Below are positions 15,792 through 16,290 of a stretch of DNA of 25,739 nucleotides, piece after piece. The DNA is from a virus (lineage: Duplodnaviria > Heunggongvirae > Uroviricota > Caudoviricetes), in the IMG/VR virus record IMGVR_UViG_2675903417_000004. One strand, written 5' to 3'. A program made the translations under genes and the position numbers. The first letter of the stretch is position 1. The number at the start of each line of letters is the position of its first letter. Under the pieces are notes generated by a model. That model was not told the origin of the DNA. It was given only the letters and a program-made list of their open reading frames with translations, and made no database searches.

Positions 15792-15873
15792 GTTGAGAAC
15801 ACTGGCGTAACGGGGTCATATCCCAATCTATGAATAAATGTTGCGTTGCAGCGTGACAACCAGTGTTCTCAAC
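15792..15873 (+). repeat. structured repeat unit 1: perfect 14-bp inverted repeat enclosing the conserved core GTAACGGGGTCATATCCCAATCTA
   Basis: GTTGAGAACACTGG (15792-15805) and CCAGTGTTCTCAAC (15860-15873); core at 15807-15830; followed by TTGTGGTGAATGC. Confidence 0.5.
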
Positions 15874-16071
15874 ATTGTGGTGAATGCACAGGCTGATGTG
15901 CCGCAACTACAGTAGTGCGCGCTTTGCGGGGCTTGCTACAACCCTGTGTCGGAGTTCAGCACCGACCATCACAGTTTGATTCTCTGGCATGAGCATAACG
16001 CTGAAATAAGTCCAGCCTGGTGCGGCCCGATCACCCGCCGTTAGCTCCACGAAACGGAGCACGTAACAGGT

Positions 16072-16131
16072 AAGAGCATTCTCCTGTAACGGGTTCATAT
16101 CCCAATCTACAGGTCCACCAAGAATGCTCTT
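16072..16131 (+). repeat. structured repeat unit 2: perfect 11-bp inverted repeat enclosing the same core (GTAACGGGTTCATATCCCAATCTA)
   Basis: AAGAGCATTCT (16072-16082) and AGAATGCTCTT (16121-16131); core at 16086-16109 (23 of 24 identical to unit 1); followed by TTGCGGTGAATGC. Confidence 0.5.
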
Positions 16132-16290
16132 TCCGTTGCGGTGAATGCGGCTAAGCGCACGCGGGGAAATGGTTATATCAGTCCATTCATTTCTCCTTGT
16201 TTCCCCGTCCACGGTGGATAACCAGCCAAAGGACACCGGGAGGCACCCGGCACCGCAGCTTTTTTATTCGTTAAATAATGGAGTGAGAGG

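Follow-up and report, generated by a model that had tools for sequence, protein, structure and literature searches.

Hairpins that copy the anticodon arm of one particular tRNA are known from the thrS operator of Escherichia coli, which is bound by threonyl-tRNA synthetase, and from viral tRNA-like structures. Hairpins cut by RNase III are found in phage polycistronic RNAs, such as the T7 early RNA, the lambda N leader and sib, and in phage P1 the C4 RNA is processed by RNase P. Prophages also give rise to the small RNAs STnc100 and PasD, which bind Hfq, are cut from longer transcripts and differ in their seed regions (bioRxiv 10.64898/2026.05.13.724894), and phage-encoded tRNAs are able to counter host anticodon nucleases (PMC10264068; PARIS, PMC11464382). 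Here, we describe a family of RNA hairpins in a viral sequence of 25,739 nucleotides (IMG/VR record IMGVR_UViG_2675903417_000004; the whole of this stretch is called the window below), which is a variant of phage P1 with 99.7% identity to MH422554. The hairpins lie on the + strand of ~730 nt in which no gene is convincing and which extend from tRNA-Thr to the next + strand open reading frame (ORF; 16291), in the ban operon under the C1 operator Oban. They are + strand RNA structures under selection, and in two of them the tip of one arm (P2) copies the anticodon arm of the initiator tRNA, tRNA-fMet. The reading that we favour, and hold tentatively, is that the hairpins are paralogous modular phage RNA elements which are processed from a longer transcript and use this tip as a mimic of the initiator-tRNA anticodon arm.

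Like the thrS operator and the viral tRNA-like structures, the P1 element is an RNA hairpin that copies the anticodon arm of one tRNA and would be expected to engage the partners of that tRNA; it differs from them in that its model is the initiator tRNA and in being phage-borne, present in several copies and, in P1, not placed beside a start codon. Its basal helices, which we call clamps, are, like the RNase III sites of T7 and lambda, long near-perfect duplexes between the units of one phage transcript, but those sites lack a conserved tRNA-like apical domain and the P1 clamps are predicted cleavage sites. C4 offers a precedent within P1 for a hairpin RNA that is cut from an operon transcript, and STnc100 and PasD occupy the same niche as the P1 elements, namely the untranslated parts of prophage operons. 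The counter-nuclease tRNAs of phages resemble the hairpins in their position within a phage tRNA cluster and in having an anticodon loop that departs from that of the host tRNA; the hairpins, however, are fragment mimics that are unable to translate, could serve only as decoys and could not stand in for a tRNA. Both tRNA mimicry by RNA and tRNA-based counter-defence by phages are already known kinds of mechanism.

Architecture of the hairpins and selection on the RNA strand

A preliminary description of this region reported two paralogous hairpins, here termed M1 and M2 (Table 1), with unrelated perfect stems of 14 and 11 bp around a common loop core. Both stems are present, in unit 1 (GTTGAGAACACTGG, 15792–15805, with CCAGTGTTCTCAAC, 15860–15873) and in unit 2 (AAGAGCATTCT, 16072–16082, with AGAATGCTCTT, 16121–16131), but they understate the helices, which extend over ~20–23 bp (91% complementarity in M1). 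The stems are also not unrelated: direct comparison shows 8 of 14 positions to be identical, as in diverged copies of one conserved clamp, and the M1 clamp GUUGAGAACACUGG is a diverged copy of the clamp GGUAAGAGCAUUG/CAGUGCUCUUUCC. The pairing of the two units as paralogs holds, whereas the count does not, as the window contains four such hairpins, the other two (M-1 and M0) carrying other cargos. The predicted folds of M1 and M2 have energies of −46.1 kcal/mol (z = −7.2) and −35.0 kcal/mol (z = −6.5), respectively, relative to shuffled sequences, and the 720-nt stretch as a whole has an unusual degree of structure (z = −7.3).

Each module consists of a CACAAC-like 5′ flank, a clamp helix of ~20 bp related to GGUAAGAGCAUUG/CAGUGCUCUUUCC and a variable cargo. 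M0, M1 and M2 are each followed by GUUGYGRUGAA and by a further domain, which we call B, closed by CAYCRCA; M-1 has only a diverged UGUUGCGUC after its clamp and no recognizable B domain. The sequence TTG(T/C)GGTGAATGC that had been noted after both units is found at 15875–15887 and 16136–16148. This middle segment can pair in two ways, either upstream, as an extension of the clamp, or downstream, in the closure of B, and on direct reading the U/C difference between M1 and M2 within it is compensated in both partners. Its conserved part (15875–15882 and 16136–16143; 10836–10846 in contig L257) reads GUGGUGAAU, or GUGGAGAAAC in copies of the SfV type; it is Shine–Dalgarno-like (GGUGA, GGAGA), which may be an accident since it is also helix-forming.

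In M1 and M2 the cargo is of one type, in which a covarying helix bears AC-GGG-(K)UCAUAU-CCC-AAUC; in M1 the tip of arm P2 comprises GGG at 15812–15814, the loop GUCAUAU at 15815–15821 and CCC at 15822–15824. At least ten diverged families have this fold, with a clamp of 17–28 bp, a three-way junction, a P2 arm with the core at its tip and a variable P3 arm. Loops of the type (U)UGCAG (15846–15851 in M1) recur in P3 and in a small post-clamp hairpin in many families (contigs L034, L257, L250 and others), with covarying stems.

The clamp itself is far more widespread than this cargo. A scan of viral contigs with a pattern that combined the 3′ clamp with GGTGAAT, the yields of which are lower bounds, gave at least 84 unique clamp hairpins with at least ~51 unrelated cargo types of 27–170 nt between almost invariant arms, which hold a conserved U.U mismatch. 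Among the matches listed, the clamp pairs of 84 unique hairpins include 97 G.U cells and only three A.C cells, from which we infer that the clamp functions as + strand RNA and not as a DNA cruciform or as minus-strand RNA; the + strand folds of M1 and M2 are also more stable than their − strand folds. Of the options that had been offered earlier, a small RNA or an RNA processing signal is thus retained and a DNA cruciform is not.

Conservation and distribution of the core

The 24-nt core is present at 15807–15830 and 16086–16109 with 23 of 24 positions identical, as first described, and no third copy occurs in the window at up to three mismatches (none expected by chance in 100 shuffles). M1, M2 and a third, PY54-like version found in Yersinia prophages have 19 identical nucleotides, ACGGG(G/U)UCAUAUCCCAAUC, while the closing helix differs in each version (CUGAAUA/UAUUCAG in the Yersinia type; those of M1 and M2 are given in Table 1) and the clamp and P3 are likewise replaced. 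Across 41 distinct variants of the P2 closing helix, all seven pairs covary: 64 doubly changed cells were counted against 20.9 ± 5.0 after shuffling, with none of 500 shuffles reaching as high, and the covariation score of 0.410 compares with at most 0.156 in slid registers. This covariation and the architecture common to the diverged families bear out the suggestion that the hairpins belong to a selected RNA structure family.

The core is also conserved in other genomes, being present in P1-like phages and Yersinia prophages and, as a relative that matches at 17 of 19 bases, in about half of the complete E. coli genomes. The exact P1-type core was matched in two of 185,579 species-representative genomes; the P1 variant is therefore narrow, and breadth is seen only when loop positions 32, 33 and 38 are left free. 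Relaxation of these positions in the search pattern revealed a larger group with the motif ACGGGCUCAUAACCCAAUC, to which the 17 matching bases of the P1 core refer. This motif occurs in 106 of 117 relaxed-pattern matches and in 106 of 120 copies sampled by the clamp alone, a sample that is unbiased for the core. Of the 5426 complete E. coli genomes, 2810 contain it, with ~3,700 copies in this species, and this version is also carried by phages SfV, SfII, SfIV, mEp460 and ST64B and by Stx2c phages. A decayed copy lies in the e14 prophage of E. coli K-12 under the annotated ORF ymfH. At this locus (2830–3110 in L343, from a K-12 derivative) an STnc100-like domain, a terminator and the decayed initiator-like hairpin all lie beneath ymfH, just upstream of xisE-intE, and the ORF is probably an artefact over structured RNA.

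Rfam, searched at the gathering score and at E ≤ 10, gave no ribozyme, riboswitch, Y-RNA, C4 or tRNA match over the hairpins, and the few weak matches there were to spurious microRNA models. Literature searches with the sequences, ymfH/yfdP, initiator-tRNA mimics and tRNA-fMet decoys, with the P1 genome paper outside their scope, returned no description of the hairpins. Judged from sequence comparison, the hairpins with their initiator-like tip would appear to represent an RNA module covered by no Rfam family or description that we could find.

Resemblance to initiator tRNA

Three consecutive G-C pairs beside a CAU loop are the hallmark that sets initiator tRNAs apart from elongator tRNAs. In the widespread relatives with the motif ACGGGCUCAUAACCCAAUC, a run of 14 consecutive nucleotides, CGGGCUCAUAACCC, matches the anticodon arm of tRNA-fMet from E. 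coli at every base, and the P1 copies have 12 of the 14 in common with this stretch. The tRNA sequence used in the comparison is a 100% match to a tRNA-Met gene that every one of the 5426 E. coli genomes carries, with a median of four loci in each; we take four to be the number of initiator genes (metZWV and metY) and this gene to be the initiator. The anticodon arm of elongator tRNA-Met is different, and that of the tRNA-Ile(CAU) of P1 itself differs too.

M1 and M2 keep the GGG/CCC pairs (29–41, 30–40 and 31–39), the seven-nucleotide loop, U33, CAU and A37 of the initiator. Unlike the tRNA, the P1 element has no cloverleaf and no acceptor end, and its arm is extended by a helix of 4–7 bp that stands on the ~20-bp clamp, so that the whole P2 arm would be comparable in length to the anticodon/D limb of a tRNA. 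The loop is CUCAUAA in 106 of 120 relatives that were picked without reference to the core, compared with GUCAUAU and UUCAUAU in P1, and among 120 copies selected only for their clamp, all but ~5 retain GGG/CCC. The invariance of GGG/CCC in the 41 helix variants adds nothing to this, because the search patterns fixed these bases. A reading of the core as a T-loop was dropped, as there is no equivalent of A58 and the relatives conserve CAUA rather than UUCRA.

Likeness to tRNA is not general among the cargos. Among the matches listed, tRNA T-arm-like cargos are a minority (~9 of 84 hairpins carry GTTCRANT), and seven-nucleotide loops with U at position 2 are found in five of the at least ~51 cargo types against 1.7 ± 1.3 in shuffles, a weak enrichment; the idea that all cargos are tRNA fragments was rejected as a general rule on these counts. 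M0 is one hairpin with a tRNA T-arm-like cargo (GGGUUCGAAUCCC, 15611–15623), in the place of which P7 carries another cargo.

Several points weigh against functional mimicry. The P1 copies depart from tRNA-fMet at loop positions 32 (G or U, not C) and 38 (U, not A). Pairs 27–43 and 28–42 are A.A and C.A in all relatives, so that three of the five stem pairs are mimicked, and the P2 helices of M1 and M2, at 4 and 6 bp, fall below the usual 7 bp. The e14 copy of K-12 has lost CAU and has the loop UUAAUAA. Most of the E. coli copies of the motif are close relatives, and invariance alone therefore says little. With at least ~51 unrelated cargo types, a minority of them tRNA-like, the scaffold is not specific to tRNA mimicry. 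Finally, three P1-like contigs in IMG/VR (L018, L044 and L050) are deletion hybrids in which recombination between the two cores has fused the 5′ arm of M1 to the 3′ arm of M2, with loss of the 279 bp between the copies; the clamp of these hybrids is unpaired (−18 versus −46 kcal/mol), and two intact copies must therefore be dispensable in at least some lineages.

Possible function and alternatives

We propose that the hairpins would be transcribed on the + strand as part of an untranslated array of tRNAs and small RNAs in the C1-repressed ban operon. Each element comprises the clamp, a junction with a P2 arm ending in three G-C pairs and a seven-nucleotide loop of the form xU-CAU-Ax, and the following segment GUUGYGGUGAAU. 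The clamps would act as sites for an RNase III-type endonuclease, which would divide the precursor so as to yield tRNAs, free hairpin RNAs and STnc100-like RNAs. Once cleavage has taken place, the middle segment GUUGYGGUG could re-pair with the downstream CAYCRCA and so close an STnc100/PasD-like domain, and the freed or exposed hairpin could then bind or titrate a factor that recognizes the anticodon arm of tRNA-fMet. The predicted duplexes (23 bp in M1, ~20 bp in M2 and 17–28 bp in the relatives) span about two turns of near-perfect helix, as would be expected of an RNase III substrate.

The binding partner of the tip and its benefit to the phage are matters of speculation. The initiator-tRNA step limits all protein synthesis and is attacked by toxins such as VapC. 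To our knowledge, the three G-C pairs of the initiator have no known role other than in recognition by the 30S P site, and this site or a tRNA-fMet-specific VapC/PIN anticodon nuclease, for which the hairpin would be a decoy, would be the leading candidates. The VapC proteins of Salmonella and Shigella cut tRNA-fMet in the anticodon stem-loop, and VapCs generally cleave structures that resemble anticodon stem-loops (PMC7180214); phages that infect these hosts tend not to encode tRNA-fMet themselves (PMC10264068). It is conceivable, though we regard it as doubtful, that enterobacterial temperate phages (P1, SfV-like, Stx2c, ST64B and PY54-like) carry an RNA decoy of the initiator anticodon limb, cut from untranslated operon segments, that neutralizes host nucleases of the VapC/MvpT type, which kill infected cells through cleavage of tRNA-fMet, or else enters the 30S P site and so manipulates translation initiation. 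Such a decoy would amount to RNA counter-defence or translation takeover by means of part of the single tRNA whose gene phages otherwise avoid. Should the mimicry prove functional, an element present in about half of the sequenced E. coli genomes and in P1 would target the machinery that reads initiator tRNA, a fragment-decoy strategy would be added to the picture of phage tRNAs that counter anticodon nucleases, and a role would be found for part of the long untranslated ban leader of P1.

One alternative is that the hairpins serve processing and insulation only, as sites of the RNase III/RNase E type and stabilizing folds that separate tRNAs and small RNAs and resist Rho and decay, the likeness to tRNA-fMet being functionless. 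The duplexes of ~20 bp or more with conserved mismatches, the use of one clamp for ~51 unrelated cargos (among the matches listed), the high degree of structure of the 720-nt stretch and the natural occurrence of deletion hybrids would all agree with this, as would the location of the hairpins, which are always between modules and at times right after the 3′ end of a tRNA; in some P1-like contigs they begin directly after the CCA of tRNA-Thr. We nevertheless consider it unlikely, as it leaves unexplained both the identity of the 19-nt core where closing helix, clamp and P3 have all been replaced and the 14-nt identity to tRNA-fMet, which includes the initiator-specific GGG/CCC.

An Hfq-dependent small RNA would combine clamp, cargo and B domain in a molecule of the STnc100/PasD type, with the cargo loop as a YUNR kissing loop or seed for mRNAs (for example, at UUAUGAG near start codons). 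The B domain is indeed STnc100-like, a variable 5′ part on a conserved 3′ scaffold is the usual layout of small RNAs, the loop UUCA fits YUNR, and STnc100 and PasD are themselves processed prophage small RNAs with varied seeds (bioRxiv 10.64898/2026.05.13.724894). However, a search of the 97-kb P1 genome for an antisense target of the core found a longest complement of 9–10 nt, which is at chance level, with no complementary site longer than 10 nt, and a loop of 5–7 nt that pairs with AUG would be almost devoid of specificity. Pairing of this kind requires neither GGG/CCC nor identity to a tRNA stem, and the SfV-type hairpin lies beyond the terminator of the STnc100-like domain and hence outside that small RNA. 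Taken as a whole, a seed function for the tip is improbable.

A cis-acting element similar to put or nut, in which the nascent hairpin modifies RNA polymerase for terminator read-through in the long leader, would be in keeping with the position of the elements in terminator-containing leaders and with HK022 put, which also consists of two paralogous structured RNAs of ~70 nt (PMC9378689); put lies just downstream of an early promoter and binds the zinc-binding domain of the RNA polymerase β′ subunit. By position, the only respect in which the two were compared, the elements described here are downstream of terminators and far from promoters; with as many as four elements per operon and a hypervariable cargo as further objections, we think such a role very improbable.

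That the units are elements of the DNA, whether a cruciform, a palindrome bound by a protein, a recombination site or what is left of a miniature transposon with terminal inverted repeats, might be suspected from the inverted conserved arms around a variable centre and from the recombination that has taken place between two cores, but is scarcely credible in view of the 97:3 ratio of G.U to A.C in the arms, an orientation to transcription that is always identical and a 3′ neighbour that is always GUUGYGGUGAAU (a requirement of the pattern, yet also true of the hairpins in the window and of the Yersinia type). The flanks, moreover, are inverted (ACAAC/GTTGT) and not direct repeats, with a shared CACAAC 5′ flank; there is therefore no target-site duplication as expected of a miniature inverted-repeat transposable element, and the units do not look like remnants of one mobile element, a possibility that had been raised in the preliminary description.

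Equally hard to credit is minus-strand coding, in which the repeats would be by-products of genes for Plp and Upl: the ORFs exist (15529–15906 and 15907–16236, both on the − strand) and plp and upl are annotated in the P1 reference NC_005856, but they have no Pfam match, are absent from the P7 annotation, are left uncalled by the RefSeq pipeline in nearly all of the listed P1-like E. coli plasmids and, in the case of upl, differ in length (64 residues in the reference, 109 in the window), and the same DNA is made of RNA modules that are shared piecemeal with unrelated phages and of which P7 and D6 swap parts for other cargos and a tRNA-Ser. Both genes are probably annotation artefacts over a structured RNA array.

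The downstream domains

On sequence, the B domain after M2 is best described as a distant relative of STnc100. Its segment 16137–16257 aligns with the core of the Rfam model RF02076 and scores 37.8 bits (E = 2e-06), compared with 207.7 bits for the control copy of phage 933W; we do not file it as a member, because the score is under the gathering score of 47. Neither the hairpins nor the domains that follow M0 and M1 were matched by RF02076. Alignment with the 933W copy, which lies downstream of stx2B, shows that the M2 domain shares with STnc100 a closing helix of the xUGGUG/CACCAx type and an identical CCGGGAGGCACCCGG 3′ hairpin; a T-run follows, with no separate terminator hairpin. The M1 and M2 hairpins fall outside the Rfam model, and the 5′ part of the canonical 933W copy is unrelated.

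The closing helix of the B domains covaries in the alignment. After M1, the domain begins with a hairpin GCACA-GGCUGA-UGUGC and has a 3′ hairpin GUCGGAG..CCGAC. The short domain after M0 has ~80–86% identity to untranslated segments of Nonanavirus PJ16, of Sashavirus and, upstream of N, of the P22-like phage SPN9CC. A boxA/nut reading of this domain was dropped, as the boxA-like GCUCUUUGA reads AGUUCUCAGAAA in PJ16 and AGUCCAUCGAGG in SPN9CC.

A scan of the + strand for intrinsic terminators found none at M1 or M2 and flagged only 14897–14919 and a weak candidate at 16518–16534 inside the next gene; M1 is followed by AUUGUGG and M2 by GUUGCGG, with no U-run. Phages of Klebsiella, Salmonella, Cronobacter and E. 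coli have parts of the hairpin stretch in their own untranslated leaders. The combination of a clamp, a variable cargo and an STnc100-like domain could be seen as a reusable scaffold that organizes many unannotated intergenic regions of enterobacterial phages.

A 34-nt segment at the end of the STnc100-like domain (16226–16259) is matched at 100% inside annotated type I-E CRISPR arrays of E. coli chromosomes (H129 and H130), where it is presumably a spacer; the array lies beside cas2e/cas1e.

Genomic setting

The order of the ban operon is C1 operator, dicF-like region, tRNA-Asn, tRNA-Thr, the hairpin stretch, small genes, tRNA-Ile(CAU) and ban. The direction of the transcript is fixed by the neighbouring tRNA-Asn and tRNA-Thr, which are part of it, and M-1 lies upstream of tRNA-Asn, so that the module brackets the tRNA pair. 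Within 15560–16260 no tRNA cloverleaf was detected by ARAGORN or by the Rfam tRNA model, even at E ≤ 10, the window containing three known tRNAs only. The tRNA-like cloverleaf that precedes the spacer-like segment in Klebsiella prophages (Table 1) was read by eye as tRNA-Gly UCC. The coordinates of the features are collected in Table 1.

Table 1. Hairpins, associated domains and tRNAs of the P1 ban leader in the window, in order of position
Feature	Position	Strand	Description
Clamp hairpin M-1	15106–15190	+	CACAACAG-GUAAGGGCGCUGG ... CAGCGUCCUUUCC-UGUUGCG, with its own cargo; 5′ of tRNA-Asn; −42.4 kcal/mol, z = −5.5
tRNA-Asn(GTT)	15405–15480	+	ARAGORN; Rfam tRNA (74.5 and 72.9 bits for the Asn/Thr pair)
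tRNA-Thr(TGT)	15483–15558	+	ARAGORN; Rfam tRNA (74.5 and 72.9 bits for the Asn/Thr pair)
Clamp hairpin M0	15560–15646	+	GGUAAGGGUAUUU / AAGUACCCUUACC; inverted repeat; −41.6 kcal/mol, z = −5.2
Short B domain after M0	15641–15698	+	GUUGUGAUGAAGUGCAG ... CCAGAAGAUAAGCAUCUGG ... UCACAAC
Small hairpin	15766–15783	+	GCCGGAACCGUAACCGGC; immediately 5′ of M1; same hairpin beside Yersinia-type elements
Hairpin M1 (unit 1)	15783–15882	+	23-bp clamp (15783–15805/15860–15882) closing a three-way junction
M1 arm P2	15806–15832	+	Helix CGUA/UACG around core ACGGGGUCAUAUCCCAAUC (15810–15828)
M1 arm P3	15839–15858	+	UGUUGCG-UUGCAG-CGUGACA; loop UUGCAG in common with Yersinia type, stem covaries
B domain after M1	15874–15975	+	UGUGGUG (15876–15882) pairs with CAUCACA (15967–15973); alignment, closing-helix covariation
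Spacer	15986–16064	+	81–84% identity to a segment of Klebsiella prophages directly 3′ of a tRNA-like cloverleaf
Hairpin M2 (unit 2)	16062–16140	+	Clamp CGUAAC-A-GG-U-AAGAGCAUUCU / AGAAUGCUCUU-U-CC-GUUGCG (16062–16082/16121–16140)
M2 arm P2	16083–16113	+	Helix CCUGUA/UACAGG around core ACGGGUUCAUAUCCCAAUC (16089–16107); loop UUCAUAU
B domain after M2, STnc100-like	16135–16265	+	UGCGGUG (16137–16143) with CACCGCA (16251–16257); 3′ hairpin CCGGGAGGCACCCGG; T-run 16260–16265

The same frame is occupied differently in related phages. P7 (L003, 2896–2982) and D6 (L002, 2965–3051) carry other cargos and an extra tRNA, tRNA-Ser(UGA), which together with another last hairpin cargo replaces the spacer and M2 of the window. 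As regards the tRNAs of the window, tRNA-Asn(GUU) and tRNA-Thr(UGU) are among the targets of PARIS-type nucleases, which is a lead only for the idea of tRNA counter-defence across the array.

Upstream of the tRNAs, a strong + strand intrinsic terminator (GCCCATCTTCGGGTGGGCG followed by seven T residues) occupies 14897–14919 in the dicF-like region, between the C1 operator (ATTGCTCTAATAAATTT, 14707–14723) and the tRNAs; transcription of the tRNAs and ban would therefore need read-through or another promoter. Just 3′ of the first clamp hairpin, a 13-nt unit, AACAGCGGTGCTT, is repeated in tandem in ~2.6 copies (15204–15237).

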